A stretch of 38,278 bases of DNA from an uncultured Planctomycetales bacterium (GTDB taxonomy: Bacteria; Omnitrophota; Gorgyraeia; Zapsychrales; Fredricksoniimonadaceae). The stretch spans positions 80,284-118,561 of the forward strand of contig CAZABZ010000001.1 in assembly GCA_964483535.1 (NCBI GenBank), given 5' to 3'. A program made the translations under genes and the position numbers. Positions 508 to 23,954 of the stretch are shown in pieces; positions within the stretch are counted from its first letter, which is position 1, and every line of letters starts with the position of its first letter. The notes beneath the pieces are model-generated. The model had not been told where the DNA came from. It saw nothing but the letters and a program-made list of their open reading frames with translations, and did no database searches.

Positions 508-1422
508 TTAGCGACCGAGACTCTTAAGCGGATTGTTCTGGAAGAAGTCCAGGAAGACTGGTCCAGCAACTAAAATAGCAACCACTGGAAAGATAAAAAA
601 CAGCAGAGGTATCAACATCTTCAAGGGTGCCTTTAATGCCATTGCCTCACCTCTCCTGAAACGGGCATCCCTCATGTCTTCAGAAAGTATGTTCAAGGCA
701 TCAATAACAGAGGTCCCCATGCGGTCAGCCTGAATGAGGGTTCTGGAAAAGGTGGACAGATCCGGCAATTCATACTTTTTAGCCAAATCCCTCAACGCAT
801 CACGCCTGGATTTACCCACATTAATTTCCTGCATCATGTTCCTTAGCTCATCGATAACCACTGTGGGCATTGATTTTTCAACCACATATTTCAGCGCCAT
901 CATAAAATCCAAACCGGCATTAACGCAAAGCCCCAAAAGGTCCACGGTATCCGGTAAAAACCTTAAAATGTCTTCTTTGATCTTCTTAATCCTGGCCTTC
1001 AGCCAAAACTCAGGCAGCATGTACCCGAGAGCAGCCCCCATTAAGATCCCGAACATTAAAAAATCGCCATTACCATTAAATTTTAAAACCAACAACAAAA
1101 GGACCGCTATCAGGATCTCTTTGATTAAAAAGAATTCTTCGACGGTGATCCTTGATTTGCCCATCCTCAAATCCCTGTACATGCGCTGACCGGTTGGCGA
1201 AATAGCGAAAGGCCTGTTAAATAAGGCCAGTTTACGCGTTGTCGAGAATATAAACTCCAACGGCCCCTTTTTTTTACTCTCAACGCCGAGTTTAGGCAGC
1301 AAGCTATCCAGGGGATCGTCCATCTTCAATTGCAATTTAGGACGATTATCCAAACCCACAGGCAAAAATCCCAAAATCAGGGCAAATCCGGCAAAAAAGG
1401 CGAATAATAAAGGTAGTAACAT
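508..1422 (-). CDS. tadC: TadC-like Flp pilus assembly inner-membrane platform protein (T2SS-F family)
   Basis: 304-aa ORF with terminal TM segments flanking a soluble GspF-like domain. Starts 1 nt after the tadB stop, as the last gene of the pilus operon. Confidence 0.8.
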   Translation of the reverse strand: MLLPLLFAFFAGFALILGFLPVGLDNRPKLQLKMDDPLDSLLPKLGVESKKKGPLEFIFSTTRKLALFNRPFAISPTGQRMYRDLRMGKSRITVEEFFLIKEILIAVLLLLVLKFNGNGDFLMFGILMGAALGYMLPEFWLKARIKKIKEDILRFLPDTVDLLGLCVNAGLDFMMALKYVVEKSMPTVVIDELRNMMQEINVGKSRRDALRDLAKKYELPDLSTFSRTLIQADRMGTSVIDALNILSEDMRDARFRRGEAMALKAPLKMLIPLLFFIFPVVAILVAGPVFLDFFQNNPLKSLGR

Positions 1423-1423
1423 T

Positions 1424-2290
1424 TTATACGTCCTTAAACGTGGATATTTTCCAAATGCTTAGGGCTCCTAACACCCACAATACGATGCACAAGACCATTA
1501 GATTCTGCCCCCTGGGCGAATTAAACATGGTGTCAAAAAAATGAGGGTTTGTCCCCGATACGGTAAAAAAGAAAAACACCGGCAAGCTGGTCATGACAAC
1601 CGCCTGAATTTTTCCCTGCATCGTCAGGGTTTGAAGGTTTTTTTCTATCTTTTTTTGCTCGCGGGTGCTTTTGACGATACGCGCAAAAATAATCGGCAAA
1701 TTGCCTCCGGTATCGCGCGCCAGCAAAATGGCCGTTACCAACTGCTGCATGGCCGGGGAAGGCATGCGCCGATAAAGACGATTGAGCGATTCGTCTAAAG
1801 GCACTCCCATTTTGTTCTCTCCTAAGACCACCCCAAACTCACCCTTGGTCGGGTCCGGCATTTCATCTGCCACTGATTCAAAAGCCTGTACTAAGCTTAA
1901 TCCCCCGCGAAAAGAGCTGGACATGATCATCATCGCATCAATAAGCTGGTCATTAAATTTTTGCTTGCGAATCGTGACAAGACGACCGACATACACGCGC
2001 GGCAAAATATAACCAAAAACCACCCCGGCAATCAGCCCGATCAATTTTTGCCCTTCAGGAAAAATAAAAAAACCTGCTATGCCTAAGACAACCGGACCTA
2101 AAAGGACCAGCTGGTACATTTTCTTAAGTTCTTCTTCCTTCATGTACCGGTCAATCTTTCCGACGACGGCCTGCGCCCGGTCTTTGTTCATCTGACTGGA
2201 CCTGGCCACCAACGTCGGCACAAAGGTGACCCCTAAAAGAGTAACAGCAACAAACAATAAAAATAAGGAAAGTATAAGCATATGCCTCAT
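1424..2290 (-). CDS. tadB: TadB-like Flp pilus assembly inner-membrane platform protein (T2SS-F family)
   Basis: 288-aa ORF with the same TM / soluble-domain / TM layout as the TadC paralog and adjacent to it. The start codon is uncertain: no clear SD at 2290, and an alternative ATG lies 9 nt downstream. Confidence 0.8.
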   Translation of the reverse strand: MRHMLILSLFLLFVAVTLLGVTFVPTLVARSSQMNKDRAQAVVGKIDRYMKEEELKKMYQLVLLGPVVLGIAGFFIFPEGQKLIGLIAGVVFGYILPRVYVGRLVTIRKQKFNDQLIDAMMIMSSSFRGGLSLVQAFESVADEMPDPTKGEFGVVLGENKMGVPLDESLNRLYRRMPSPAMQQLVTAILLARDTGGNLPIIFARIVKSTREQKKIEKNLQTLTMQGKIQAVVMTSLPVFFFFTVSGTNPHFFDTMFNSPRGQNLMVLCIVLWVLGALSIWKISTFKDV

Positions 2291-2294
2291 TACG

Positions 2295-2645
2295 TCATTG
2301 CGACGTCTGATTATTCATCTGACCACAACTGCTTGTCTGGCACTGACTATTCATTATGCCCTCTTGACAGTCAGCGTTGCATTGTGAATTGTTAAAAGAC
2401 AGGAAGCAATTACGATCATACCACAGATTTGATTGCTCATCAAAAGCGCATTCAATAGTTTTTTGCGGATCATACTGCCGCCCAAAGGCAAAGCTTTGTC
2501 CTGATTGCCCCCAGAGGCCAAAAATCCCGCGCTGGATATAATTTCTCATTACCAAAAACGCTCCGATGATAATGACAAATAACACCGTGTATTCAACCAC
2601 AGAAAATGCTTTTTTATTTAAAATTTTATAGTCCGGAAACATCAT
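2295..2645 (-). CDS. Flp/TadE-type prepilin-like protein with a Cys-rich C-terminal region
   Basis: N-terminus NKKA/FSVVEYTVLFVIIIGAFLV fits a class III signal plus hydrophobic helix. The YIQRGI motif is shared with pilins P4, P7 and P8. I count 7 Cys in the C-terminal half. GGAGGA lies 8 nt upstream of the ATG. Overlaps the 3' end of the 1130-aa gene by 20 nt. Confidence 0.7.
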   Translation of the reverse strand: MMFPDYKILNKKAFSVVEYTVLFVIIIGAFLVMRNYIQRGIFGLWGQSGQSFAFGRQYDPQKTIECAFDEQSNLWYDRNCFLSFNNSQCNADCQEGIMNSQCQTSSCGQMNNQTSQ

Positions 2646-5600
2646 ACGTCAGGTCCTCCGGCTGCTTCTGGCAGTTAACAAATTTCAAAGAATAATTACT
2701 CTGATTATAAGTCTCGCCCGAAGCCTGAGAAGCGTCACTGCCAGCTATATATTCCGCACAAATATGGCTTTCCGGGGCATTATTCAACAAATTATTGGCC
2801 TGGGAAAGACATTTGCCGTAGCCTGGGGAAGGAGAGTTAATGTCCACCGTACCGCTAGTGCTACCAGGATTGTAGTTGTCATTTAACATAAAAGCATTGC
2901 CAAGTGCCGTCTGATCCTGTGTCGATATTCCAGCATATCTTAACCCTTGTACCGTTTGGGGCACAAGGCCAAACCCGATAGAACCGCCGCTTAAGCCTTT
3001 ACATGCTTGCATAAGCTCTTTTCCGGTAGTATTGGCAACGCTGCCTGCGGCAGGATTATGAAATAAAAATTGCCATAACGGATGTCCATTAGGGAAGAGG
3101 ACAGAATTATTGCTATGGTCCTCATCCCAACGCTTGACACTGACATACACAAGTCCATCGCGAGCTTGGAGGGTATAAGTACGAGCCATATCACATGTCA
3201 AAGAATACGTGACAAAGTCTCCAGTAATGACTACATAGTAAGTCCACCAATTACTACTGTTGCATCCTAGCGCCGTCTCCGTGTCAATCCACGGCAATAG
3301 AGACCCTATGCCTAAGGTGTTACTTCCGCCACGGCCCGGCGAATATGCCGTGACTTTAACAAGATGCGCGTATCCCTGCTGGCCATTAGGGTAGGTATTA
3401 TCAACCCATCCATAGATTACGGAATTTGGTAATTTTGCCGTCGGAGAAGGTTGATTATACGCGTAGGTCAGCTGGGCTGCCGGCCCGCCGGCTGAGCAGT
3501 CGGAACCAGAACAGGGTTTGAAAAAAGCACTCAGCGCGTTGTATCCTGATTGAAAAATACTTTGCATGGACTGGGCCCTAGTGTAAATATCCTGTAAAAA
3601 CCCGGATCGCAACGCGAACTTTGGAGCCTCGTCGGTAGCTAAAATATAGCTGTTCTGCACCCAATTCGCAAAACTGCTTGGCGCGGTAGCGGTAGGATCA
3701 CATGAAGATTTATCGCCTGGAGTGAAGGCAGGTGCTTGCCCCGCGAGAGAACGGCCCAAAACCGAAGGCGCGCACGAGGCAGGCAATGCGGAGCATGTTG
3801 TTGCCTCCTTCTTCAAGTCGACCAAGCACTGATTATAGTTGTTCGCCGGGACCGTGCCCGCATTATAATTCAGACAGGCAATAACAGAGGGCATGCTCCC
3901 CCAGGTTGCTCCGCCGTCATTACTATTTATATAGGTATTTTCAGTTGAGCCATTCTCACTTAAAAGTATCGCTTCCTGCGGAACGCACCAGGCACTGTTG
4001 CTCTCATAGCTTTTTGTATTCAACCAATTTGTAATCACCGTGTTCCAAGTGCTGAGATTTGTCACCAGCGGCGGCAAACGGCCGGTCGACGGATCAATCC
4101 AATCAGCCATCTGAGGATACCAGGTAGTAAATGTTGCGCTTAATGTTCCTACATCATTACTAAGGAAGTTATTTGAAAAATTAACAAAATCTGTCAAGGT
4201 GTGCATAGCGTAGTCCAACCCATCCAGGGTACTGGGCGGTTCAGTTAAAGGGGGAGAGGGCGCCGAAGAAGACGCAGTGGCGCTGCCAGTCAACTCACAA
4301 GTACCATCCTGAAAGGTCGAGGTTGCTCCATTATATGGCCAGGTCGTGGAGCACATCTGGTTGTCTCCTTGCAACCAAGAGCCGGAGCTGGCTTCTCCAA
4401 AGCTTGGATCAATAGCAGGATTTGACGATCCCACTATATCAATCGCCCCATTGACAACGGTGCTGGACGGAGTTGGCACGCCGTTAGTGACGCTGCCGGC
4501 AAGATAATTAACACAACAATCTTGGCCCTGACAACTATACGGCAAACTTAACTGGGCCAAATCTGTAAATCCCGTTGGAACTGTAAAAACCGGAATATTA
4601 ACTCCGTTGGTAGCTGTCGTTGCCGGGGCGCACCAATGGAGATCCGGAGAGTTTGCGACAGGAGGATTGGTTAGTGGATTAATGTTATTCACCTCCGGGC
4701 TATAAGCCTTCATCAGCCAGAAAAATGGAAATACTCCGTTGGGAAACTCCACAACAGGCGTCACTCCAGCGGGGGTTATCACATCGGGCTGTAAAGTAAA
4801 AGGCGGTGTCCCCATGGGCTGGTCACGGCCATACTGGGCTAAAAATGATACCCCTGCCGCATAGTTCTGAAAAGTAGGATCATAAAGAAGCGTGTACGGA
4901 TTTGTCGAGGCCCCGTATGCTCCATATGGATTATTTTGCGTGCATTGCACGGGTGCGCCGTTGTAGCTTGTGCCTTGATCACAACTAGAAGGCCGTACAG
5001 ACACATACTGTGTAGGGTGCATGGGATTGAACGTACAATTAGAAGACTGTGTAGACAAACCCGACATGGAGTGCGTGGAATTGAAAGTACCTTTGGTAGC
5101 GCTGGAAGCACAATACGCCGGATCCAGCACTTGCAGCGGCTGACAGCATGGGTCGCAATAAGGACTATAGGGATTTGAACTGGAGCACGCGTCATTTAAT
5201 TGGAAAACATTCGGTATCTTCACTTGACAGGCTGGATCTATAGGATCATTAATGCAAGTTTGTGCGCCTAAAGCGGCACAGACAGGGTTGAGCGTAACAG
5301 CGTTCTGATAACTTGCATAATCACTTTCATTTTGACCGCACGTTTCGCCATTCATTAATTCCCCCAATTGATTATAAAAGAACACCACCTGAGGGATAAG
5401 AGGTTTGTTTAACATTTTTAAACGGTCGGTATAAAATAACGCAAACCGGCCAACAGTGTCATTGGGGAAACCGTTTGTGCTTCCCAAAACACCATTGGCG
5501 TTAGAATCAAGATAATCCGTGATGTTAACTTGGTCCGTGACGCTGCCTTGAAGGGCCGCGGCGATGCCCCCTTCATAAAACTGCTGGGTGATAGGCTGGT

Positions 5601-6018
5601 TCTTCTGTAATTGATTCCATATCGATGTTATCCCCGGCTGAACCACGACTATTTGAAGGACTAAATTTGCAACAGCCGCCACAACCAGAAGCCACATCAC
5701 AGGCCCCATCGTCCCATAACTACAAATGGTTACAACAATCGCTACTATAATTGTAATAATAGCCACTATGAGCCCCACCCTGCCGGTATATTGATTAGTG
5801 CCCTGTAAATTTTCCTCCTTCATCATTTCACCATAACTGGCCGCATCCGAAGCCAAAAGCGAGGCGCTTTGATCGGCGGCTATAGTCAACAAGGCCTTTG
5901 TCTGGGCAACGCGACCCCAGTTTAAGGTGATGGCAAGAAAAATCAGCGCCGCCGCCGTCAATAAAATCAAAATCAAGGCAGTTTGGCCACGCGTGTCATT
6001 GTTTATTTTTTTAATCAT
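2626..6018 (-). CDS. Giant TadG-like protein (1130 aa): TadE/G-like N-terminus, an extra TM hairpin, and a long Cys/Ser/Thr/Asn/Pro-rich extracytoplasmic region
   Basis: N-terminus TRGQTALILILLTAAALIFLAITLNWGRVAQTKALLTIAADQSASLLASDAA matches the Tad_N (TadE/G-like) pattern. A second hydrophobic block of about 50 aa (GLIVAIITIIVAIVV...LVLQIVVVQPG) follows. I count about 33 Cys. No other domain recognised. The start overlaps the upstream gene by 4 nt (ATGA). Confidence 0.7.
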   Translation of the reverse strand: MIKKINNDTRGQTALILILLTAAALIFLAITLNWGRVAQTKALLTIAADQSASLLASDAASYGEMMKEENLQGTNQYTGRVGLIVAIITIIVAIVVTICSYGTMGPVMWLLVVAAVANLVLQIVVVQPGITSIWNQLQKNQPITQQFYEGGIAAALQGSVTDQVNITDYLDSNANGVLGSTNGFPNDTVGRFALFYTDRLKMLNKPLIPQVVFFYNQLGELMNGETCGQNESDYASYQNAVTLNPVCAALGAQTCINDPIDPACQVKIPNVFQLNDACSSSNPYSPYCDPCCQPLQVLDPAYCASSATKGTFNSTHSMSGLSTQSSNCTFNPMHPTQYVSVRPSSCDQGTSYNGAPVQCTQNNPYGAYGASTNPYTLLYDPTFQNYAAGVSFLAQYGRDQPMGTPPFTLQPDVITPAGVTPVVEFPNGVFPFFWLMKAYSPEVNNINPLTNPPVANSPDLHWCAPATTATNGVNIPVFTVPTGFTDLAQLSLPYSCQGQDCCVNYLAGSVTNGVPTPSSTVVNGAIDIVGSSNPAIDPSFGEASSGSWLQGDNQMCSTTWPYNGATSTFQDGTCELTGSATASSSAPSPPLTEPPSTLDGLDYAMHTLTDFVNFSNNFLSNDVGTLSATFTTWYPQMADWIDPSTGRLPPLVTNLSTWNTVITNWLNTKSYESNSAWCVPQEAILLSENGSTENTYINSNDGGATWGSMPSVIACLNYNAGTVPANNYNQCLVDLKKEATTCSALPASCAPSVLGRSLAGQAPAFTPGDKSSCDPTATAPSSFANWVQNSYILATDEAPKFALRSGFLQDIYTRAQSMQSIFQSGYNALSAFFKPCSGSDCSAGGPAAQLTYAYNQPSPTAKLPNSVIYGWVDNTYPNGQQGYAHLVKVTAYSPGRGGSNTLGIGSLLPWIDTETALGCNSSNWWTYYVVITGDFVTYSLTCDMARTYTLQARDGLVYVSVKRWDEDHSNNSVLFPNGHPLWQFLFHNPAAGSVANTTGKELMQACKGLSGGSIGFGLVPQTVQGLRYAGISTQDQTALGNAFMLNDNYNPGSTSGTVDINSPSPGYGKCLSQANNLLNNAPESHICAEYIAGSDASQASGETYNQSNYSLKFVNCQKQPEDLTYDVSGL

Positions 6019-6266
6019 GGAATTGTATTGTTCCCATTAGTTATGCTGCCGTGATACACCGCGGCCATCGGCTGAGCAATGCCGACGTCAGAATTTAGTT
6101 GTGACGCCGGATCGGTGCCCACCAGTGTTGTCATTGAATTGTCCTGCGCCCAACGCCGCTCGGCCAAATCCATGCCTGTCCAACGGAAGACCCTCACCAT
6201 GCCGTAAACTAAAAACATAATGACAACCATCGCAAAGGTGAATTCTATGGTTGATTGGGCTTTCAT
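6015..6266 (-). CDS. TadE-like pseudopilin (83 aa)
   Basis: N-terminus MKA/QSTIEFTFAMVVIMFLVYGMV fits the TadE-type motif. Translationally coupled to both neighbours. Confidence 0.7.
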   Translation of the reverse strand: MKAQSTIEFTFAMVVIMFLVYGMVRVFRWTGMDLAERRWAQDNSMTTLVGTDPASQLNSDVGIAQPMAAVYHGSITNGNNTIP

Positions 6267-8138
6267 TTATTTAATCCTCAATTGTCCTGATGTATCAGTC
6301 ATCCAAAAATGGCCGCGCCGATCTTGAAGACGGCTGCGGACAAATAACATATTGCTATTCGCATAAAAACATGTCGATTTAATATTCTGCTGACTGCTAA
6401 AACAGTTATCATTGGAGCCGGGAGGTATACAGACTTCCACCGGATTAGGCGTTACCCCGTCATTGGCAACAGTAGTCAGACGGTTCCCATTTTGATCGCA
6501 AAAGCGTCCGGTGTTATTGCTCAATTGAATAGTGCGCTGTATTAAGTCTATTGTATCGCGCTTATTAGCGCTGCGCACAAACTGGTCGGTTTCAGGATTG
6601 TATAATTTCCCTTCCTTAATCTGTAAATAAGTGCCGTCCTGGGTGAAGGTGAAAATTTGCGAGTCTGGCTGTAACCCAGGCTTGGGGCCGCAAGAGGTGA
6701 ACTGGTCCCAAATTCCATCAATATCCCCGCCCTGAGGGTCCTCATAAGACACCGTTGGTGTCCCGTCTGAATTCAGGCTGATTGCGTAAATAGTTACTCC
6801 CTCTTCCGCTATCCTGCCGTCTATATCATACTGAGGATACTGGTTGTTGCTGGCATTCAATCCGATTACGCTATCGATTGTAGCCCCTCCTGCCGAGGGA
6901 CTAAACAACCCAAACACGCTGCTAGAAGCCGCGGTGGTTGAAGGGACCCTTACCGCGGTGGCCGCCCATTGCCAGGCTACGTAACAACGCATGTTCGCTG
7001 CCGTAGTAGCTGAACATGCTGTCACCCCCCCTGTCTCCGCCATCGCAGGAAATTGCTGCTCTACCGACGTGTAATCCCCCAAGCGCTGAAGGTCATATTG
7101 CATGTCCCCACTGCTGTTGGTATACGGATTGCCGTTTGCATCCAACACCGTCAAAGTCGAACATAACGCGTTATACGAAACGCTATCCGACGAGCTACTC
7201 GTGGTGGACGAACAGGCCGGTGGGGTCGGTAAAAAGAAGGGCGCCGTCTGTCCTCCGTTGACCGCTCGTGTATAAAATAATTTATAAGAGGTCATGTTGC
7301 TCTGCAAAATACTTTGTATCTGATTTAATGCCGTCTGCCCCGCACTTGGAAACTTGTTTTCAAACCACGTGACAAACGAAGTTGGCAACGTCGACGAATT
7401 AACAGTGCCCTGGGTATTAGACCCCAAAGCCAGACTAATCACCCCTTCATTGGCCAATTCATTAAAAATGGCATTGCCATTGGCTGCCATTGTTGTGTCT
7501 GTCTTCGTCTTGCTGATATTGGAATAATTATTTGTCGTGTCGAATGTGAATGGTACTACATAATCAAACAGGCTTGCATTAACTGTCGGGAGCGCCCATT
7601 CCCTTTTATTGCGATTGCTTTGGTTCTTTAGGCACTGCTGTTGCTGCGGGGTGGAGGCGTTACAATCCGACGAGCATTGCGTAGATTTTGTAATTGTTTT
7701 ATTCGTAACATAGGACGCGGTGGTAAAAGGAAAATACTGGCCGTTGATATAAACGTCCATGATCGGCAAATTCGAAGCCACCTCGCCAACATCCAAAGGA
7801 TAGAGCTCCTCATACGAAAAGGTCCCTGAACCCTGGGCAATAAAAGGATTACGGTCTAAAGCCCCATACTTATTAAAGTCCGGGGAAAGCCGGTCTTCCA
7901 CAAAAAGAATTGAAGCGCTGGTGCGGGACGTATTGCCGGCCTTGGAGCTATTCCATGAAGCCAGCATGGCCATGCGCATGGCTTTAAAATTTTGATTTTG
8001 CGTATAACTATTGCCCACGGCGGAACGCACAATCGTCCCCAGAATAAAAACAAGGATAGCTCCGAAGACGGCAAGCTCGATGGCAGCCTGCCCTGCCTTG
8101 GCGATGACCTGTGTTTTTTTATTTTCCATCTTGAGCAT
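6267..8138 (-). CDS. Large TadE-like protein (623 aa) with a Ser/Thr/Asn-rich extracytoplasmic region
   Basis: N-terminus KAG/QAAIELAVFGAILVFILGTIV fits the TadE_N pattern. I count about 12 Cys. The remainder is not recognisable. Its start overlaps the upstream pilin stop by 1 nt (TAATG). Confidence 0.65.
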   Translation of the reverse strand: MLKMENKKTQVIAKAGQAAIELAVFGAILVFILGTIVRSAVGNSYTQNQNFKAMRMAMLASWNSSKAGNTSRTSASILFVEDRLSPDFNKYGALDRNPFIAQGSGTFSYEELYPLDVGEVASNLPIMDVYINGQYFPFTTASYVTNKTITKSTQCSSDCNASTPQQQQCLKNQSNRNKREWALPTVNASLFDYVVPFTFDTTNNYSNISKTKTDTTMAANGNAIFNELANEGVISLALGSNTQGTVNSSTLPTSFVTWFENKFPSAGQTALNQIQSILQSNMTSYKLFYTRAVNGGQTAPFFLPTPPACSSTTSSSSDSVSYNALCSTLTVLDANGNPYTNSSGDMQYDLQRLGDYTSVEQQFPAMAETGGVTACSATTAANMRCYVAWQWAATAVRVPSTTAASSSVFGLFSPSAGGATIDSVIGLNASNNQYPQYDIDGRIAEEGVTIYAISLNSDGTPTVSYEDPQGGDIDGIWDQFTSCGPKPGLQPDSQIFTFTQDGTYLQIKEGKLYNPETDQFVRSANKRDTIDLIQRTIQLSNNTGRFCDQNGNRLTTVANDGVTPNPVEVCIPPGSNDNCFSSQQNIKSTCFYANSNMLFVRSRLQDRRGHFWMTDTSGQLRIK

Positions 8139-8467
8139 TAATTCCCTACCTGTGTACTCCCTGTCTTCGTTTCCAAAGAATTGGACGCGTCAACCCGATT
8201 TGTCCATTGGCCCTGTTCCAACTGACCTGTACTGTTATTAGATCCATTTAAGACAGTCACAATGGATTGTGCATTAACCTGCGTCGCGTAGACGATATTG
8301 GAGTTAACGGACTGGGGGTCATACTGGTCGCCAAAATCATCTGCCGCTGATTTCCACCGGCCCTGAATGCCTCTCTTGATATAATCCTTCATGGCAATCA
8401 TAACTCCCAGGATAATAATCACGATCACCGTGTATTCTAAAATTGTTTGTCCTTTATGGTTGCGCAT
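8138..8467 (-). CDS. Flp-type prepilin P8 (type B, 109 aa)
   Basis: HKG/QTILEYTVIVIIILGVMIA, then YIKRGIQGRWKSAADDFGDQYDP. This is a close paralog of P4. Confidence 0.8.
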   Translation of the reverse strand: MRNHKGQTILEYTVIVIIILGVMIAMKDYIKRGIQGRWKSAADDFGDQYDPQSVNSNIVYATQVNAQSIVTVLNGSNNSTGQLEQGQWTNRVDASNSLETKTGSTQVGN

Positions 8468-8507
8468 AAGTTTTATCCTTTAATCCGTGTCCTTGCACAA
8501 TTGTTTT

Positions 8508-8867
8508 TTACTGATTAGTCTGAGTAAACCCTCCATTGGTGATGGTATTTGTCATCGTATAAGAGGACTCATTGAAAACCGTATTCGTCACATAAACCGC
8601 GTTACCGGATGCCGGCATATACCCTGATTCTGTTACCTGCTTCTTTTTGGATTCTTGTGTCACGCTGTTGGACCCTTCCATATATCCTTGCTGGACGTCA
8701 TTGAAATCCTGGTCTGAATTCTGCTGGTTGCCCACCTGATCTGCCGTGACCTTTACCAAACTTTGCACGCCGCGCTTGATGCTTGTCCCCATATAATAAA
8801 GCACTACCGTAACAATGCCGACGATGATGGTGTATTCCAAAATAGACTGGCCGCGGCGCGCGAACAT
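8508..8867 (-). CDS. Flp-type prepilin P7 (type B-like, 119 aa); start moved to the internal ATG at 8867
   Basis: MFARRG/QSILEYTIIVGIVTVVL fits the prepilin motif. GGGAGGTG lies 5 nt upstream of this ATG. The 70-aa N-terminal extension in the ORF track is an out-of-frame read through the P6 tandem repeat. Confidence 0.75.
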   Translation of the reverse strand: MFARRGQSILEYTIIVGIVTVVLYYMGTSIKRGVQSLVKVTADQVGNQQNSDQDFNDVQQGYMEGSNSVTQESKKKQVTESGYMPASGNAVYVTNTVFNESSYTMTNTITNGGFTQTNQ

Positions 8868-8868
8868 C

Positions 8869-9327
8869 TTAACACCTCCCGTTGGCACATTCCGGCTGCA
8901 ATTGAGTACTTCTCGAATTAATTTGAGTCGCCTCATTATTGGCACATTCCGGCTGCAATTGAGTACTTCTCGAATTAATTTGAGTCGCCTCATTAGAAGA
9001 CCTGGTATAAATGGCCCCAAGGACCTGCGCGTTGCCCGTTGTTGCCCCTGTAGTGTCTTGTTGATTCTTCTGAACACCCGCAGCCATTATCGAATAATAC
9101 GGCTCGTACTCATAAGGGATTTGATTACCCGCGGCTCCAGTGGCTTTCAAGCAATTAGCGTCACATGCGCCGCTATTGACCACTGAATTAATCATAAAAT
9201 TCCTCGCGTCATGAATACGCGCCTCAAGGCCGCGCTGTACAAAAGTGGTCATGGCTACCAGCGCCGCGATCACTACAAAAAAAATCATCACATACTCTGA
9301 CAGGATTGCCTGGCCTTTATTATTCAT
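8869..9327 (-). CDS. Flp-type prepilin P6 (type C, 152 aa) with a duplicated 19-aa C-terminal unit
   Basis: NNKG/QAILSEYVMIFFVVIAALVA, then QRGLEARIHDA and a YEYEPYY motif shared with P3. The C-terminus carries NEATQINSRSTQLQPECAN twice. Confidence 0.8.
   Translation of the reverse strand: MNNKGQAILSEYVMIFFVVIAALVAMTTFVQRGLEARIHDARNFMINSVVNSGACDANCLKATGAAGNQIPYEYEPYYSIMAAGVQKNQQDTTGATTGNAQVLGAIYTRSSNEATQINSRSTQLQPECANNEATQINSRSTQLQPECANGRC
8882..8995. repeat. Perfect 57-bp tandem duplication (8882..8938 and 8939..8995), in frame within pilin P6
   Basis: The two copies are identical base for base when read from the sequence. The period is 57 bp, equal to 19 codons. Confidence 0.95.
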
Positions 9328-9339
9328 GCCTCGCCTCGA

Positions 9340-9386
9340 GTGTCATTGCGAGGAACCGTAGGCGACAGCGTTCCTCGCAATGACAC
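9340..9386. repeat. Perfect 17-bp-stem palindrome GTGTCATTGCGAGGAAC-(13 nt)-GTTCCTCGCAATGACAC in the P5-P6 spacer
   Basis: Read directly from the sequence. This is the only long intergenic gap (73 nt) in the pilin array. No U-tract follows on the transcribed strand. Confidence 0.9.
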
Positions 9387-9400
9387 AATAAGTGTTCCTT

Positions 9401-9607
9401 CTAACTCGCCGGAGTACCTGTGCTCGCCGCGTTATCTTGCAAGTATGAGGCCACGTTGAGCATGTCCTGTGTCGTCGAATTAAACACATTAGTCAGGCGC
9501 GTCTGAAAAAGGCTGCCTTTGCCCAGCGTAAACAAGATAATTACCGCAACGACCGCCGTGACGAGCAAAATATACTCCACTGTGCTTTGACCTTTATGTG
9601 TGCACAT
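9401..9607 (-). CDS. Flp-type prepilin P5 (type A, 68 aa)
   Basis: THKG/QSTVEYILLVTAVVAVIILF. The N-terminus is nearly identical to that of P2. Confidence 0.85.
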   Translation of the reverse strand: MCTHKGQSTVEYILLVTAVVAVIILFTLGKGSLFQTRLTNVFNSTTQDMLNVASYLQDNAASTGTPAS

Positions 9608-9625
9608 GCGTTTGTCCTTTACTCA

Positions 9626-9958
9626 TTACGTGGCGTTAGATCCCCAATACTCCTGCTGAGTATTGATGATAACTGAATTCTCCATGGTATTGGTAACTTC
9701 AGTGCCCAGTATATTGGATGTAGACACCCCCGCGTTAAACGTCTCCAAAGTATTACTGGACCTGTTAATTGTCTTAACTGCATTTGTATTACCATCGGAA
9801 TACTGATCGCCGATATCGTCCGCGGCGCTTTTCAAACGTCCCTGCACCCCGCGTTTGATATAGACCTGAAGGGTCAATAGGGCGCCGATAATGACAACTA
9901 TCAACACCGCGTATTCCAAGGTGCTTTGCCCTCGTCTTTGATTAAGATATTGCAACAT
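9626..9958 (-). CDS. Flp-type prepilin P4 (type B, 110 aa)
   Basis: QRRG/QSTLEYAVLIVVIIGALL, then YIKRGVQGRLKSAADDIGDQY. AAGGAGGG SD upstream. Confidence 0.85.
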   Translation of the reverse strand: MLQYLNQRRGQSTLEYAVLIVVIIGALLTLQVYIKRGVQGRLKSAADDIGDQYSDGNTNAVKTINRSSNTLETFNAGVSTSNILGTEVTNTMENSVIINTQQEYWGSNAT

Positions 9959-9988
9959 AGGATCCCTCCTTAGAATATTTCGTTATAA

Positions 9989-10351
9989 TCATTGTGTTTG
10001 GTTCATGTCACTAGCGTTATAGGTGGATACCTGAGAACCGGTTCTTGCGCGGTTGCTATCAGAATCTGCACCTACCAACCCTGCCCCTAAACGTTTATTT
10101 TCAGTGCTGTTGGTGGCCACATCATAATTACTCTGCATATAATAAGGCTCATACTGAGTTGAGTTTCCCAAGCCTATTGTAGAGTTGCTGCCAGTAGTGG
10201 CCATATACTGTGCTGCGTCGTGGATACGGGCTTGCAACGCGCGTTGGGCGTAGGTCTGCATGGCAATGACCCCGGCAATCACCAAGGCGATCAAAAGCGC
10301 GTATTCCGCGGTATTTTGAGCTTTTCTGTTTTTAAGGAAGTTTCTTAACAT
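9989..10351 (-). CDS. Flp-type prepilin P3 (type C, 120 aa), Ala at the predicted -1 position
   Basis: NRKA/QNTAEYALLIALVIAGVIA, then QRALQARIHDAA and a YEPYY motif. AGGAGG SD upstream. Confidence 0.8.
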   Translation of the reverse strand: MLRNFLKNRKAQNTAEYALLIALVIAGVIAMQTYAQRALQARIHDAAQYMATTGSNSTIGLGNSTQYEPYYMQSNYDVATNSTENKRLGAGLVGADSDSNRARTGSQVSTYNASDMNQTQ

Positions 10352-10397
10352 GTGTTCCTCCTATATGGATTCATAAAAGTTATCTTTTTAGCCAACC

Positions 10398-10646
10398 TTA
10401 TTTTGGCAAAACAGAGACCGAATACGGAGGCGTAGCATTCCCGCCGCCGGAGGATCCCTGCTCCGAGGCAGCTAATCTATCAGACATATTGCCCACCTGT
10501 TCAATGGCTGAGTTCAATGTCGAATTAAGCTGCGACTGTAACCCACTCTTGTTGGAAGTTACCATGGCGATGATAACTGCCACCACCGCGGTCACAAGCA
10601 AAACATACTCCACCGTGCTTTGACCTCTTTTATTTTTTATATGCAT
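10398..10646 (-). CDS. Flp-type prepilin P2 (type A, 82 aa)
   Basis: NKRG/QSTVEYVLLVTAVVAVIIAMV. GAGGAGG SD upstream. Confidence 0.85.
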   Translation of the reverse strand: MHIKNKRGQSTVEYVLLVTAVVAVIIAMVTSNKSGLQSQLNSTLNSAIEQVGNMSDRLAASEQGSSGGGNATPPYSVSVLPK

Positions 10647-10673
10647 AAATTCCTCCTCAAGTACGAGGTTTTT

Positions 10674-10829
10674 TTAATTTTCAGAATCCTCAGTAATCAT
10701 CTTCTGTTGTGCTTGAACGGAACGGAACACGTAGGTGCTCAAAGCAGCCACCGCTGCTGAGATTAAGGCAACGACGATCGCGTATTCGATGAGATTTTGC
10801 GCGTTTCTATTTTTTAATTTTTGGATCAT
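10674..10829 (-). CDS. flp: Short canonical Flp pilin P1 (51 aa), absent from the supplied ORF track
   Basis: Hand translation of the minus strand gives MIQKLKNRNAQNLIEYAIVVALISAAVAALSTYVFRSVQAQQKMITEDSEN, ending in TAA. It has a basic leader, a QxxxEY motif and a hydrophobic helix, and is the first gene of the array. A purine-rich stretch AAGGTGAAGGG lies just upstream of the ATG. Confidence 0.7.
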   Translation of the reverse strand: MIQKLKNRNAQNLIEYAIVVALISAAVAALSTYVFRSVQAQQKMITEDSEN

Positions 10830-11048: not shown

Positions 11049-12101
11049 TTAAAGGAGAGGAATTGCTTCAATTTTAACATTTACTAATCTATCCTGTCCG
11101 TCACGTAAATACATCCCATTTAATTTTTCAGCCGCCGCTTGAAGTATGATTTTATTCTCATAACTATTATTAATTAATAACGTTACAACATTTTCGTATT
11201 TATTTGTAGTATCAAATCCCTTTAGATTTAACATATTATCTATAACCCCATTATTATCAATTAGTTGTGGGAAGAATATCGCTTTTAGCCTTTCCTTGGG
11301 ATTTTTTTCACTGCTCTCCACAAATACCCTCCTTTGTAACATAAATCTCCTCTTCGACTCCACTATATTGCTTAATTCTAACAAAATATGGTCTTCTCCA
11401 TCCACTATTGCAATAGAGCCGATTTTAAAACCTTCTTGAGCTTCCATACATGCTTTAAAAAGCCCTTCATCTGAAACTTTATCTACAATGAGAGGTTTTA
11501 CATTATTAATCAACCCGTCTGCCGCTTCCCGAATACACCTCTCCAAAGGTAACGGCAAATCAATGAAAAAACTTTTGTTGTTTTCTAAAACTACTTTAAT
11601 GCCCTTGCTATAGGTCAAATAATAATTCCAATCCGTTGCTTTAATATTCTCCTCTGAGAATATACCTAAATCCCAAAGCGCTGCCTTATAAAAAATGCTC
11701 CCCGCTCTTTCATGCTCAGGCGAAATCTGCACGTCTTCCTTACCCTCATCATCGTAAAGTTTTTTAGTGTCATTGCGAGCGACCACAGGAAGCGTGGCAA
11801 TCTCTTTAGAAAATTGCTTGTCCTCCAATAAAGGGGGGATTAACTTAACCTGGGAAAGACTGGCCTGGATCTGGTTCTTTTTTTCTTGAGGGATTTCGAA
11901 CTTGTTTTTGGGTTTGCGCCCTCGAGGCGTTGTGATGCCTGATTCCTTAAGTACGTCATTGACCGATGATTTAGAAAGATTCAGGCCAAATTTTTGGGAT
12001 GCGGATTCAGCCAATTGTCGGCAGGAAGCAAGCGGGTTACTTTGCCTTTGGCTGATAATAAAATGGACAACTTCTTCCTTTAATTTATATATGACACCCA
12101 T
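11049..12101 (-). CDS. Hypothetical protein with an N-terminal helix-turn-helix; candidate regulator directly upstream of the pilin array
   Basis: Residues about 8-60 (EEVVHFIISQRQSNPLASCRQLAESASQKFGLNLSKSSVNDVLKESGI) resemble transposase- or regulator-type HTH modules. The remaining 290 aa or so are unrecognised. A repeat-element arm is embedded at 11767..11804. Confidence 0.5.
   Translation of the reverse strand: MGVIYKLKEEVVHFIISQRQSNPLASCRQLAESASQKFGLNLSKSSVNDVLKESGITTPRGRKPKNKFEIPQEKKNQIQASLSQVKLIPPLLEDKQFSKEIATLPVVARNDTKKLYDDEGKEDVQISPEHERAGSIFYKAALWDLGIFSEENIKATDWNYYLTYSKGIKVVLENNKSFFIDLPLPLERCIREAADGLINNVKPLIVDKVSDEGLFKACMEAQEGFKIGSIAIVDGEDHILLELSNIVESKRRFMLQRRVFVESSEKNPKERLKAIFFPQLIDNNGVIDNMLNLKGFDTTNKYENVVTLLINNSYENKIILQAAAEKLNGMYLRDGQDRLVNVKIEAIPLL
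11767..11804. repeat. Single arm of the GTGTCATTGCGAG-type repeat family, embedded in frame in the HTH gene
   Basis: GTGTCATTGCGAG (13 nt) is identical to 9340..9352. The element continues as CGACCACAGGAAGCGTGGCAATCTC and encodes EIATLPVVARNDT in the linker after the HTH. Confidence 0.6.
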
Positions 12102-12247: not shown

Positions 12248-12859
12248 ATGTCCATTAAATTTAACCAAAACGCCGTTAGCAGCATGTCTTCTATCATAAG
12301 CTCAATTGAGAATGACCGTTATGTCTATCACTGGTTTTTAATCCTCATCAGTCTTCCTGAAATTCAGCAAAAAATCTGCGTGCAAAATAAAAAAAAGGAA
12401 GAATATCAGTCCCTCAAGAAAATCCAGATAGCTAAAATCATCATCTATGTGGCCTTGGCCCTAACTATAACCGCTTTCTGCCTGACAAAACAATTTTGGA
12501 TTCTTCTCTTAGGAATTCTCCCTTTAGTCATTCTTGTAAATTTATTCCGAAAGAATCGCAGGCGTGTTGCGGCTATCAGCGAACAATTTCTTTTAGAAAA
12601 CATCCAACCGGATGAGCTTAACCGGCAAACTCTTTATCAAACCTGTGAGCATCTCTCCAAAAAATACAATATCCCTTCCCTGGTTGATATCATCACCTGT
12701 CAGGACTTTATCGGGCGAAAAGTGCTGCTGGGGGCCATTCTCATTCTTATTTTTCTTTTCCCAATTAATGATTGGAAGATATTGATTGTAGTCTTCGTGG
12801 TATTATCAGCAACCGTTGCTATTCTCAATACCTCAATCATACTGCGAAAATTAAAATAA
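12248..12859 (+). CDS. Hypothetical membrane protein (203 aa)
   Basis: Contains hydrophobic blocks (IIIYVALALTITAFCL, FWILLLGILPLVILV, LLGAILILIFLF, ILIVVFVVLSATVAIL). No recognisable family. Convergent with the radical SAM gene across a 3-nt gap. Confidence 0.5.
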   Translation: MSIKFNQNAVSSMSSIISSIENDRYVYHWFLILISLPEIQQKICVQNKKKEEYQSLKKIQIAKIIIYVALALTITAFCLTKQFWILLLGILPLVILVNLFRKNRRRVAAISEQFLLENIQPDELNRQTLYQTCEHLSKKYNIPSLVDIITCQDFIGRKVLLGAILILIFLFPINDWKILIVVFVVLSATVAILNTSIILRKLK

Positions 12860-12862
12860 TCA

Positions 12863-14779
12863 CTAATGATGGGCAAATATAAAAAACCCTCCCAAGTCAA
12901 TAAAACTAATTGCCAACAACACAAGCCCAAGGGAAGACGTTGTCATTAAAAAAAAGATGTTGATCAAAGGGAAAAAGAGGGATACCAGCGTGGAATTCAT
13001 TTTCGAATGACGTACAACAAAATTATGGCAGTTATAATTTCGCCAATTCAGGTTCATAATCCGATTTTGGGTCAGCATGTCCCGATACAACCCTGAACCC
13101 GGCAATGGTGTCAATATGGAAACAGCTGTCGTGTACGGCATAACAGAAAAACAAAATTTCCAAAGCTGGAACAAAGTCTTTAAATTGTCTGAATCAAAAC
13201 CGAAAATAAAATGCCCTTTGATTTTGATCCCTGTATTCTTGACGATTTTAGTATATTCAATATACTTTTGAGCCATCGCTAATTTACCACCCTGATTTTT
13301 TTCCAGTGATTCGCCAAAGATCTCATACCCAAACGCCAATCCGGCACAGCCGCTTTCCCGGGCCAGCTTAAGGGCTTCCTGGTTTTGGGCAATATCAATC
13401 GTACATTCGCTGTGCCATTTAATTTTTAATGGTTTAAGGGCAGCAAAAAGCTCTTTAGCATAACCTGGGTCGGAATAAATGTTATTGTCAATAAATGTAA
13501 CGTCACGATAATAAGGTTTGACCTTTTTAATGAGTTCAACAAAAGAATTAATGGGCTGAAGATGCGCATGCCCATCGTTTAAGGCCGGAATCGTACAAAA
13601 ATGGCATCGAAACTTACACCCACGCATTGTTTCCAAGAATTCTTTAACAATATACGGCGGAGAGTTTAAAAGTTCTTCGTGGACTTTGGAATAATCAGCC
13701 TCAGTCGCAGCCCCCTTATATTGTGATTTAAGTTCCCCATTTTCATAATCACGGATCACTTCCTCCCAAACACCTTCCGCTTGACCGATAACAACGCTAT
13801 CGCAAAACGCTAAAGCTTCATACGGCAAATACGTCACATGGGGACCTCCCATGACCACTTTCGAACCTCTCTTTTTAAACTCTTTAGCAAGTTTGTAAGC
13901 CTCATAGCAGTTAGAAGTAAAACAAGTGATGCAAACAAGGGCATTATTTTTATAATAACGTTCGTGCCAGATGACCTGATCGAATTCACGGAATTTATAA
14001 GTTTTTGGTGACAAAGCTTTCAAGACCACAAAAAAAGGAGGATAGCCGCGCACAAGCCAAAACGCTAAACTATTTAAAACTCCGGCTATCGCTGGCCTAA
14101 TAAGAAAGATCTCTTTTTGACAGCTAAACTTCTCATTAATCTCAGGATAAGCGTCAAGAATATACAAAGAACAAAAAATAAATTCGAAAACATGGATATA
14201 ATTAAGAATAAACGCTGATATGTTTCGCCAATAAAAATTCCCCATATAAATAAAATCTGAAACCCTTGCCAAAATTAATTCCAAAAGACAGGCTGAAATC
14301 ATCACCATTAAAAAACTTAATTTAAACCTAAACCTGCGGTGAGGGACCCCTAACGGACCAATGTATTTTTTATTTATTGTCCATTGAGCCAACACATAGG
14401 CCGTGATAATTCCCAACAGACTAAAATATAAATTCCTCCATATGTGAAACGAAGCAAACAGGACATTCAAAGAAAGATCAACGAGACGTATCATTATAAA
14501 AACAATCAAAAATCCTTGCCAGAGAGCCCTGGCATTCTGACGAACCCGTCGAAATTGAAGCACAAATTCTTCCCCGCTCAAAATCTCAAGGATGCAGCCG
14601 CTGATTCCGCTCATGCAATATATTTTTAGAACGCCAGTAATTAATAAAATAATAATAAAATTAAATCTTAATAAAAATGATAAATTTAATAGGTCAATCA
14701 AGGTAAGGATAAAAATAGGGATAAGTAAAGAATTGAGGATGGACAGCGCTTGATGAAAATTTTGACGTTGGTTTTTCAT
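12863..14779 (-). CDS. B12-binding-domain radical SAM protein fused to an N-terminal polytopic membrane domain, with a C-terminal TM segment
   Basis: CKFRCHFC is a CxxxCxxC radical SAM cluster motif. It is preceded by a cobalamin-binding-type Rossmann segment (ALVCITCFTSNCYEAYKLAKEFKKRGSKVVMGGPHVT...VVIGQAEG). About 230 N-terminal residues form multiple hydrophobic helices. Confidence 0.75.
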   Translation of the reverse strand: MKNQRQNFHQALSILNSLLIPIFILTLIDLLNLSFLLRFNFIIILLITGVLKIYCMSGISGCILEILSGEEFVLQFRRVRQNARALWQGFLIVFIMIRLVDLSLNVLFASFHIWRNLYFSLLGIITAYVLAQWTINKKYIGPLGVPHRRFRFKLSFLMVMISACLLELILARVSDFIYMGNFYWRNISAFILNYIHVFEFIFCSLYILDAYPEINEKFSCQKEIFLIRPAIAGVLNSLAFWLVRGYPPFFVVLKALSPKTYKFREFDQVIWHERYYKNNALVCITCFTSNCYEAYKLAKEFKKRGSKVVMGGPHVTYLPYEALAFCDSVVIGQAEGVWEEVIRDYENGELKSQYKGAATEADYSKVHEELLNSPPYIVKEFLETMRGCKFRCHFCTIPALNDGHAHLQPINSFVELIKKVKPYYRDVTFIDNNIYSDPGYAKELFAALKPLKIKWHSECTIDIAQNQEALKLARESGCAGLAFGYEIFGESLEKNQGGKLAMAQKYIEYTKIVKNTGIKIKGHFIFGFDSDNLKTLFQLWKFCFSVMPYTTAVSILTPLPGSGLYRDMLTQNRIMNLNWRNYNCHNFVVRHSKMNSTLVSLFFPLINIFFLMTTSSLGLVLLAISFIDLGGFFIFAHH

Positions 14780-14796
14780 GTCACTTTGATAAATCT

Positions 14797-14824
14797 ATTA
14801 TAACGCTCGTCTTAGAACAATCAA
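14797..14824 (-). promoter_or_regulatory. Candidate promoter TTGATT-16 nt-TATAAT upstream of the radical SAM gene
   Basis: A perfect -10 hexamer on the minus strand lies 17 nt upstream of ATG 14779. No SD is visible in the short leader. Confidence 0.4.
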
Positions 14825-14844
14825 TGATCTTGCTTGTCCGCCGA

Positions 14845-16848: not shown

Positions 16849-16880
16849 TTCTTCTCTCCTGAAGGGGGCCGTTTTCTTCT

Positions 16881-16927
16881 TATAAACAAAACACCCTCAA
16901 TCATCTACTGACGATTGAGGGTGTTTT
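16881..16927 (-). terminator. Intrinsic terminator acting as the riboswitch expression platform
   Basis: The minus-strand RNA folds as AAAACACCCUCAAUC-(10 nt)-GAUUGAGGGUGUUUU followed by GUUUAU. It lies between the aptamer and the AGGAGAG SD of the receptor gene. Confidence 0.7.
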
Positions 16928-16990
16928 CCCGCAACATGTCTCAATATATACGCTTCCTGACTTGTTCTCACGCAGGCATTCAGCTTTTAA

Positions 16991-17075
16991 ATACCGTTAG
17001 GTGTTCGGACTTCCCCCAAGGGAGTTACCGCAGCGGGACTGTTCTCGATTCACACGAGATTTCCCTAACTGGTAT
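16991..17075 (-). promoter_or_regulatory. Cobalamin riboswitch aptamer (compact form with a minimal P6 region)
   Basis: The minus strand reads UUAGGGAAAUCUCGUGUGAAUCGAGAACAGUCCCGCUGCGGUAAC...GGGGGAAGUCCGAACACCUAACGG. This parallels the E. coli btuB leader core (UAGGGAAUCCAGUGCGAAUCUGGAGCUGACGCGCAGCGGUAAGG ... GAAGAC-CUGCCGG B12 box). P1 forms from AUACCAGUUAGG and CCUAACGGUAU. Confidence 0.8.
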
Positions 17076-17083
17076 GTGTTTTT

Positions 17084-23835: not shown

Positions 23836-23954
23836 AAACATCCTCCAAAAAAAACAAAATCTTTTCAAGTATACCTGATATTTTTTAAAAAAGCAAGTCA
23901 ACGGCCTAAAAAACTAATCTTTTTTTCGTAACCCATTACCTTGCACTAAATAAG

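Follow-up and report, generated by a model that had tools for sequence, protein, structure and literature searches.

A candidate minor-pilin tip module with two giant cysteine-rich subunits in an Omnitrophota Tad locus

The window analysed here, a stretch of 38,278 nucleotides from a probably predatory nanobacterium of the Omnitrophota, contains a Tad (type IVc) pilus locus with four consecutive genes on the minus strand that encode a 623-residue TadE-like giant minor pilin (p623, 6267..8138, 67.7 kDa, 12 Cys), an 83-residue TadE/TadF-like minor pilin without cysteine (p83, 6015..6266), an 1130-residue TadG-like protein (p1130, 2626..6018, 120.5 kDa, pI 4.45, 33 Cys) and a 116-residue Flp-type pilin with a Cys-rich C-terminal tail (p116, 2295..2645, 6 Cys). 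An original prediction had suggested that these genes specify a disulfide-stabilised tip, adhesin or contact module. Our analysis indicates that they probably form the minor-pilin initiation or tip module of the Omnitrophota Tad pilus machine, and that the large, partly variable and disulfide-stabilised ectodomains are its probable host-contact surface. The gene sizes are sound, as the independent JGI calls on the source contig give identical proteins of 623, 83 and 1130 residues, and a p116 gene that starts one codon later (115 residues); the cysteine counts, first given as approximate, are exactly 12 and 33.

The four genes are tightly packed with each other and with their neighbours. Directly 5' of p623 lies an array of eight Flp-type pilin genes (8138..10829, minus strand), the last of which overlaps p623 by 1 nt. 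The TAA of p623 abuts the ATG of p83 without overlap, whereas overlapping stop and start codons flank p1130 as had been noticed, in the form of an ATGA in which the p83 stop is read over the p1130 start, and of a 20-nt overlap with the p116 gene. Directly 3' of p116, across gaps of 4 nt and then 1 nt, follow the platform genes tadB (1424-2290) and tadC (508-1422; the pair 508..2290 on the minus strand; PF00482, E=2.5e-17 and 3.3e-16), and the p1130 gene is thus placed inside a tad locus, with p623 and p83 upstream and p116, tadB and tadC downstream. This arrangement is not peculiar to one genome. The order TadZA, DUF192 protein, helix-turn-helix (HTH) protein, Flp array, p623, p83, p1130, p116, TadB, TadC is shared by loci L002, L003 and L005-L008, is seen in part in the partial loci L001 and L004, and is also kept in L010, a distant locus whose p1130 homologue is only 27-29% identical. 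Database labels assign five of the eight related loci to Omnitrophota and three to 'uncultured Planctomycetales'. Such constant co-occurrence in the same order, together with translational coupling, fits the view that the four products act in one complex.

The N-termini of the three smaller proteins carry prepilin-peptidase motifs. In p623 the motif is G16↓QAAIE21 (arrow, cleavage), with Q17, A18, E21, F25, G26 and A27 invariant across 51 sequences, and in p83 it is K-A↓QSTIEF, with A3, Q4, T6, E8 and F9 invariant in eight loci; both proteins therefore have the Gly or Ala at -1, the Glu at +5 and the hydrophobic helix of a class III signal peptide. The motif of p116 is A↓FSVVEY (A↓FSV(V/I)EY in the family), and its E18, C80, C89, C93 and C102 are invariant in the same number of loci. 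p116 resembles the neighbouring Flp paralogues in tblastn comparisons and is a candidate adapter pilin; a Pfam scan gave no Flp (PF04964) match to it. p1130 differs in that G11-Q12 are conserved but position +5 is Ile and +6 Leu, the homologues likewise being hydrophobic at both positions, with Ile or Leu at +5, so that the +5 Glu is missing throughout. Residues 11-52 of p1130 (5863..5988, minus strand; GQTALILILLTAAALIFLAITLNWGR) form a nearly invariant TadG-type hydrophobic helix that aligns to positions 1-41 of the 47 in PF13400, at 16 bits against a gathering cutoff of 22.3 bits (E=0.016). PF13400 is the only Pfam family to recur among the 66 p1130 homologues scanned, with sub-threshold matches in three of 30 close (best E 0.0094) and one of 36 distant homologues (best E 0.0016). 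The TadE family PF07811 matches p83 at a similarly sub-threshold level (E=0.013, 16 bits against 22.9), and matches neither p623 nor any of its 50 homologues. Aligned by hhalign, the p83 family shares with the p623 and p1130 families the cleavage motif alone. For the TadE- and TadG-type N-termini that were originally proposed, the support consists of motifs and, in p83 and p1130, of these sub-threshold matches.

Beyond its N-terminus p623 is built quite differently from a typical TadE or TadF protein. At about 490-790 residues, p623 and its full-length homologues far exceed the limit of roughly 200 residues for those families, into which p83 fits. The AlphaFold2 model of p623 (mean predicted local distance difference test score, pLDDT, 73.9; predicted template modelling score, pTM, 0.72) shows a long N-terminal helix followed by beta sheet, and three regions can be distinguished (all minus strand): a pilin-like module at residues 12-148 (7695..8105), with an α1 helix at 12-66 and strands at 73-148, in which identity is mostly 60-85%; a variable centre at residues 149-440 (6819..7694), with blockwise identity of 10-57%; and a conserved beta-rich C-terminal domain at residues 441-605 (6324..6818), with invariant C547, C570, C579 and C590. 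The centre is absent from the distant L010 homologue, a protein of 491 residues that keeps just the two conserved ends. We found 107 homologues of p623, all unnamed or 'hypothetical', the named sources being Omnitrophica metagenome-assembled genomes (MAGs).

In p1130 the N-terminal helix is followed at residues 76-133 (5620..5793, minus strand) by the second hydrophobic block that had been noticed at the outset. Hydropathy shows this to be a helical hairpin, with an uncharged turn of Gly, Pro, Ser and Thr, ending in a conserved VVQPGITS(L/I)WN. The protein thus has two hydrophobic helices in addition to the N-terminal one, unlike the single hydrophobic segment expected of TadG. The hairpin is present in all 28 full-length close homologues (alignment A1), none of which has a Lys or Arg in the turn, and also in relatives at 24-33% identity, but it is itself only 31-35% identical in blockwise comparison, against about 80% for the N-terminal helix. 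A Cys-rich N-module follows (residues 134-541; 4396..5619), with an invariant CDPCC at 288-292, then a Ser/Pro-rich junction or linker (542-595; 4234..4395) where pLDDT falls below 50, and finally a C-module (596-1130; 2629..4233) made up of a helical domain (600-860), the best predicted part of the protein, and a beta-rich domain. Blockwise alignment places insertion hot spots in the C-module after residues 645, 651, 701, 739 and 777. The protein ends with the motif ESH(A/I)CAEYIA...(D/N)YSLKFV(D/N)C...PEDL (1083-1122; 2653..2772), which includes a predicted terminal beta strand at 1110-1114; by analogy with the beta-strand addition modelled for TadG/CpaL (PMC13533445) this strand is a candidate donor strand. 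The AlphaFold2 model as a whole has a mean pLDDT of only 59, with a 63-residue N-terminal helix, values below 50 over residues 81-141 and, in this low-confidence region, no clear beta sheet after the helix.

Both large proteins lack any recognisable domain, as was first claimed. Pfam and NCBIfam searches with p1130, p623 and p116, and with 66 p1130 and 50 p623 homologues, gave no domain at threshold; one-off matches (DUF4504, SseC, Caveolin and others) were treated as noise. PDB sequence-profile searches with alignments A1, A2 and A5 returned nothing, and Foldseek gave no match with E<0.08 for the p623 model against PDB and BFVD or the p1130 model against PDB. No vWA family was found in Pfam or NCBIfam for p1130 and its 66 homologues, nor any vWA domain among the Foldseek PDB matches of the p1130 model, and we reject the identification of p1130 as a vWA-type TadG; the ordinary vWA/TadG architecture that could have overturned the original prediction was not found in profile or structure searches. 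The p1130 Foldseek list is headed by ClyA-family pore-forming toxins, but at E about 1, probability of at most 0.08 and TM-score of at most 0.2 these are not evidence of relationship, and they probably reflect the long helices and hydrophobic hairpin of a low-confidence model.

What the large proteins do share is composition. Ser, Thr, Asn and Pro together make up 33% of p623 and of p1130, in keeping with the richness in these residues reported before, both proteins are acidic, and the Cys content of p1130 (2.9%), p623 (1.9%) and p116 (5.2%) exceeds that of the remaining window proteins that were measured (0-1.5%). Of the 33 cysteines of p1130, about 26 show conservation of 83% or more. The number of extracytoplasmic cysteines is even in 28 of 30 p1130 homologues and 43 of 51 p623 homologues, and cysteines are gained and lost strictly in pairs: at p1130 positions 836 and 841 both are present in 20 sequences, neither in 10 and a single one in none, while at p623 positions 375 and 385 the figures are 25, 26 and none. 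This parity and paired gain and loss support structural disulfides in exported proteins, and the sequence record thus supports the disulfide stabilisation first suggested for p623 and p1130.

The p1130 family is large and occurs in two forms. We identified 55 close homologues, the full-length ones 44-75% identical to p1130 and drawn from ENA, JGI, NCBI and Logan assemblies, and an exhaustive search with a hidden Markov model retrieved 594 sequences at E<=1e-3, each standing for one cluster at 50% identity, of which 322 at E<=1e-30; with the more distant relatives included, full-length homologues in independent assemblies range from 24% to 75% identity. Where names are given they are 'hypothetical protein' of Candidatus Omnitrophica or Omnitrophota MAGs, with one labelled Bathyarchaeia, and cluster look-ups of the distant relatives gave no informative name, 'hypothetical protein' only. 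In L006 (6927-11530), L007 (10001-15014) and L008 (9820-15532), and in about 20 database proteins, the p1130-type gene is split, at a boundary that falls at query residues of about 506-593, mostly 506-549, that is around or just upstream of the linker. The Cys-rich N-module is then encoded with the N-terminus, in a protein that ends with a recorded Big_7 domain (PF17957) in L006 and with Cys-rich tails in L007 and L008, while the second protein, complete in these three loci, begins with a Sec signal peptide and carries the C-module. Fused forms can conversely be as long as 1700-1900 residues (P0026, P0030 and P0031). The C-terminal motif is kept in fused and split forms alike. Judged from these sequences, the C-module (about residues 596-1130) is a separable unit, which is fused to the rest of p1130 in this genome and which other lineages produce as a separate, Sec-exported partner.

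The remaining Tad machine genes, identified by Pfam matches, lie on the minus strand between 17631 and 23901, from the gene for a DUF192 protein to that for a SurA-like peptidyl-prolyl isomerase (PPIase) of the Rotamase_2 family (22891-23901) at the head of the Tad locus. Between them are a 720-residue fusion of TadZ (ParA/MinD-like) and TadA (T2SSE ATPase; 18000-20162), a secretin with a C-terminal TonB_C domain (20229-21980; PF03544, E=2.4e-10), a combination that recurs in the distant L010, and RcpC/CpaB (21984-22823). The PPIase could, speculatively, be a dedicated periplasmic chaperone for large Pro-rich exported proteins; a Rotamase_2 PPIase is also among the conserved genes listed in the relevant passages of West-Roberts et al. 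(10.1101/2023.11.21.568195). We saw no gene for a prepilin peptidase in any part of the window. The TadZA fusion and the lack of TadV in the locus are features shared with the tad loci of Bdellovibrio, in which the fusion belongs to tad locus 1 and TadG is required for prey invasion. The window is origin-proximal, holding dnaA, dnaN, gyrB, gyrA, yidC and parA.

The Flp genes encode proteins of 51, 82, 120, 110, 68, 152, 119 and 109 residues, and the loci that extend across the array (L002, L003 and L005-L008) match it gene for gene, with orthologues in unchanged order. The 51-residue Flp (10674-10829) looks canonical and is probably the major pilin; it is shorter than the 60-residue cutoff of the mechanical list of open reading frames (ORFs), in which a 189-residue GTG ORF (8508-9077) is an over-extended version of the 119-residue Flp gene (8508-8867). 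The 3' end of the 152-residue Flp-like gene contains a perfect tandem duplication of 57 bp (two copies, 8882-8995) that doubles the peptide NEATQINSRSTQLQPECAN. Homologues elsewhere match residues 1-130 only of this protein, and the JGI call on the source contig is also 152 residues, consistent with the duplication being present there. Upstream of the array, a 350-residue protein with an N-terminal HTH (11049-12101, minus strand; weak matches to transposase-type HTH) is encoded by a gene kept directly 5' of the array in related loci that cover the position, and may be a regulator of the pilin genes. Between this gene and the first, 51-residue Flp gene, a site resembling a promoter (11009-10981; TTGACA-17-CATACT with an upstream TG) is a consensus match only, and in the same scan terminators were no more frequent than expected by chance. 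Between the DUF192 and HTH genes lies a block (12248-17623) whose products are a membrane protein of 203 residues, a B12-binding radical SAM protein that begins with a long membrane domain, a TonB-dependent receptor and a DUF6580 protein; its absence from L003, L005-L008 and L010 marks it as inserted into the Tad locus of this genome.

At its other end the locus adjoins a giant gene. An ORF of 21,986 residues, co-directional with the Tad genes, begins 534 nt beyond the end of tadC, some 26 nt past the left edge of the window (L011:11449 onward), and its product has an N-terminus, MSQNVENT..., that includes a hydrophobic segment. Five other loci likewise have a giant ORF after tadC (L003:17374, L006:16145, L007:17957, L008:17990 and L010:16764), that of L010 comprising 24,214 residues. 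BLASTP found no similarity of p1130 or p623 to the first 3155 residues of the giant protein, a result that says nothing about binding. In the passages concerned, West-Roberts et al. (2023, 10.1101/2023.11.21.568195) describe a conserved locus resembling a type II secretion system (T2SS) upstream of Omnitrophota giant genes, and giant proteins with many transmembrane (TM) regions and SecA-like domains of their own. The locus in our window is that T2SS-like locus and also the Omnitrophota Tad complex of Seymour et al. (2023, PMC10066038), with its secretin, GspE/TadA-type ATPase, GspF/TadBC-type platform proteins, RcpC, Rotamase_2 PPIase, small genes for proteins with class III signal peptides and, directly downstream, a giant ORF. 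The original prediction had touched on neither the Omnitrophota origin nor the giant gene nor the earlier description of the locus.

The closest parallel to the four-gene module is found in Myxococcus, where the TadE/F/G homologues KilL, KilM and KilN assemble into heterotrimeric Tips that are rich in disulfides and include a large KilN domain of no known fold, with KilK and KilO as Flp adapters (Herrou et al. 2025, PMC12075869). In both cases adjacent TadE-, TadF- and TadG-type genes and a small Flp-type pilin gene lie in or near the Tad locus of a predatory or, in the window, probably predatory bacterium, the largest subunit is of TadG type and has a domain without known structural homologue, many intramolecular disulfides are predicted and exposed regions vary. 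As regards the heterotrimer with its bundle of α1N helices and an Flp adapter, it is gene content, gene order and motifs that agree, and there are clear differences. In the window the TadE-like subunit is also giant (623 residues), the TadG-like subunit reaches 1130 residues or more and has the additional hairpin, each locus holds a single tip set in place of the four interchangeable sets of Myxococcus, and the locus adjoins a giant gene, with no T3SS* seen in the window. The Kil tip families themselves are reported to be confined to Myxococcota (PMC12075869).

A second parallel is Caulobacter CpaL/TadG, modelled as an apical analogue of PilK/GspK whose extreme C-terminal strand completes the initiation complex (PMC13533445; 10.1101/2025.02.12.637803). 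Like p1130, CpaL is a large minor-pilin-like protein without the usual +5/+6 residues, proposed as first apical subunit together with two small minor pilins (CpaJ and CpaK), and it has a long insertion between its N-terminal module and the conserved extreme C-terminal strand. However, CpaL has about 600 residues, a vWA domain with a MIDAS (metal ion-dependent adhesion site) motif and a recognisable pilin module, whereas p1130 has no vWA domain, shows no clear pilin module in its low-confidence model and has the TM hairpin. In type IVa pili the initiation complex is completed in trans by PilY1 (PMC13533445), and the split Omnitrophota form with its Sec-exported C-module differs from CpaL in resembling this PilK-PilY1 pair, with the strand supplied in trans. 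By analogy, the fused and split forms may therefore parallel strand donation in cis and in trans. The GspH-I-J-K complex of the T2SS and the PilY1 complex of type IVa pili likewise combine four minor subunits of which the largest, apical one lacks Glu5, and the counterpart of the split C-module is PilY1/PilC, a tip protein that is exported by Sec and is not itself a pilin. These belong to a different machine family, the present one being Tad (type IVc), show no sequence or fold match, and are several-fold smaller.

The gene set, two TadE/F-like pilins bearing E5, one large TadG-like protein without it and one Flp-type pilin, maps onto this tip scheme, which is our reason for regarding the four genes as an initiation or tip module. 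In the assembly we envisage, p623, p83 and p116, with their class III signal peptides (Gly or Ala at -1, Glu at +5), would be cut by a prepilin peptidase encoded outside the window, and in the inner membrane, on the TadB/TadC platform, their N-terminal helices would bundle with that of p1130, the presumed analogue of TadG, CpaL and KilN, which like other apical subunits has no +5 Glu. The C-module of p1130 would probably dock through its conserved C-terminal strand. The resulting acidic, disulfide-cross-linked ectodomain of about 190 kDa, with variable loops on a conserved scaffold, would then recognise or bind the surface of host or prey. That part of the original prediction which saw a tip or contact module fits both the TadE/F/G tip work and the lifestyle of predation or attachment to a host that has been inferred for the Omnitrophota (PMC10066038, PMC12583861), whose Tad system has been linked to predation or parasitism (Seymour et al. 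2023, PMC10066038). The label 'adhesin' is another matter, as no adhesin fold is recognised and the term is borrowed by analogy.

Several further points weigh against the tip assignment. For p1130 to travel with the tip, its hairpin would need to come out of the membrane or to be enclosed in the core of the fibre, and the low-confidence AlphaFold2 model shows no pilin-like beta sheet behind the N-terminal helix. A folded, disulfide-bonded periplasmic protein of about 190 kDa would have to pass the Tad secretin. Finally, Tad and TadE Pfam membership is sub-threshold, and p623 has no match at all.

These same features could be explained if p1130 were an inner-membrane protein with three TM segments that stays outside the fibre and whose large periplasmic domains form with p623 a base, alignment or stopper structure, which would take the place of the PilMNOP or GspC/L/M-type components missing from Tad systems or would anchor the pilus to the cell. 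Conservation of three hydrophobic segments throughout the family would be accounted for, as would the missing +5 Glu, since p1130 might then be neither peptidase substrate nor fibre subunit, the modelled absence of a pilin sheet, and an ectodomain that, in a protein of 120.5 kDa, is large relative to the secretin channel. TadG of A. actinomycetemcomitans was reportedly found, in early work, unprocessed in the inner membrane. Yet a hairpin turn free of Lys and Arg is atypical of a cytoplasmic loop, the hairpin is poorly conserved beside the N-terminal helix, the variable loops and insertions of the ectodomain better suit an exposed, fast-evolving surface than an internal scaffold, and the TadG/CpaL/KilN homologues are now placed at the tip. 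We therefore hold an inner-membrane scaffold to be possible but doubtful. The original prediction had argued that the hairpin keeps p1130 in the inner membrane and out of the fibre; with an uncharged turn, and with +5 Glu missing as it is from the apical GspK and CpaL, this is one reading among several.

It is unlikely, in our judgement, that the machine works mainly as a T2SS-like piston that secretes the adjacent giant protein or hydrolases, with the minor pilins engaging cargo and not a host surface. The proteins could be cast in the roles of GspH/I/J/K, p116 as adapter, p83 as the small, p623 as the middle and p1130 as the large apical subunit, the last without Glu5 as in GspK. The locus is also directly upstream of, and co-directional with, the 21,986-residue ORF, giant ORFs recur in L003, L006-L008 and L010, and West-Roberts et al. 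call it T2SS-like in the passages cited above (10.1101/2023.11.21.568195). Its core parts are nevertheless of Tad type (RcpC, TadZ-TadA, two TadB/C-type platform proteins and Flp pilins), and an elaborate fibre outside the cell is suggested by the conservation of eight Flp paralogues. The giant proteins, as those passages describe them, themselves possess SecA-like domains and many TM regions, and the first 3155 residues of the adjacent one show no similarity to p1130 or p623, although that is uninformative about binding.

A more elaborate version of the tip model, in which the hairpin is a functional element of the pilus apex, acting as core plug or insertion hairpin, and the fused and split forms are a cis/trans switch, seems to us improbable as a joint proposal. 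As a core plug the hairpin may provide two extra α1N-like helices that fill the hydrophobic fibre core at the tip. Alternatively it may be a shielded membrane-insertion hairpin, as in the ClyA family and type III secretion translocators, driven by the Tad pilus into the envelope of host or prey, where it might possibly open the way for the 21,986-residue giant protein. On sequence grounds the uncharged turn and weak conservation do not look like those of a standard cytoplasmic loop. If the proposal were true, fused and split p1130 would be the first Tad case of switching between strand donation in cis, as in GspK or CpaL, and in trans, as in PilK with PilY1.

The idea that the large ORFs are spurious or fused by frameshift can be dismissed: broken frames occur in the nanopore-derived L005 only, an identical p623 is found on four contigs from at least two samples, gene calls agree on the one contig displayed, cysteines and motifs are conserved along the whole length of p1130 and p623, and full-length homologues at 44-75% identity in independent assemblies, within a family of 594 representatives, refute it.

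The minor-pilin tip module that we favour has implications beyond this locus. Passages located by term in West-Roberts et al. (10.1101/2023.11.21.568195) and Seymour et al. (PMC10066038) neither single out nor interpret the two large proteins of 623 and 1130 residues, and do the same for neither the hairpin nor the Cys pattern nor the occurrence of fused and split genes; in the literature searched, to the extent of such passages, the reading of these proteins as a giant Tad tip, the family-wide hairpin, the pattern of Cys pairs and the fused/split architecture appear undescribed. Omnitrophota are widespread uncultured nanobacteria, among which V. archaeovorus is a documented predator that attaches to other cells, and the Tad locus beside their giant genes is the leading candidate for a contact apparatus. 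Identification of a tip module within it would yield concrete candidates for host recognition in the 623-, 83-, 1130- and 116-residue proteins, and would carry the concept of a TadE/F/G tip that has variable domains over to a distant phylum and to far larger proteins. A large family without known domains, spanning 594 clusters and combining a hydrophobic hairpin with a split between cis and trans, would also be relevant to the priming and capping of type IV filaments.

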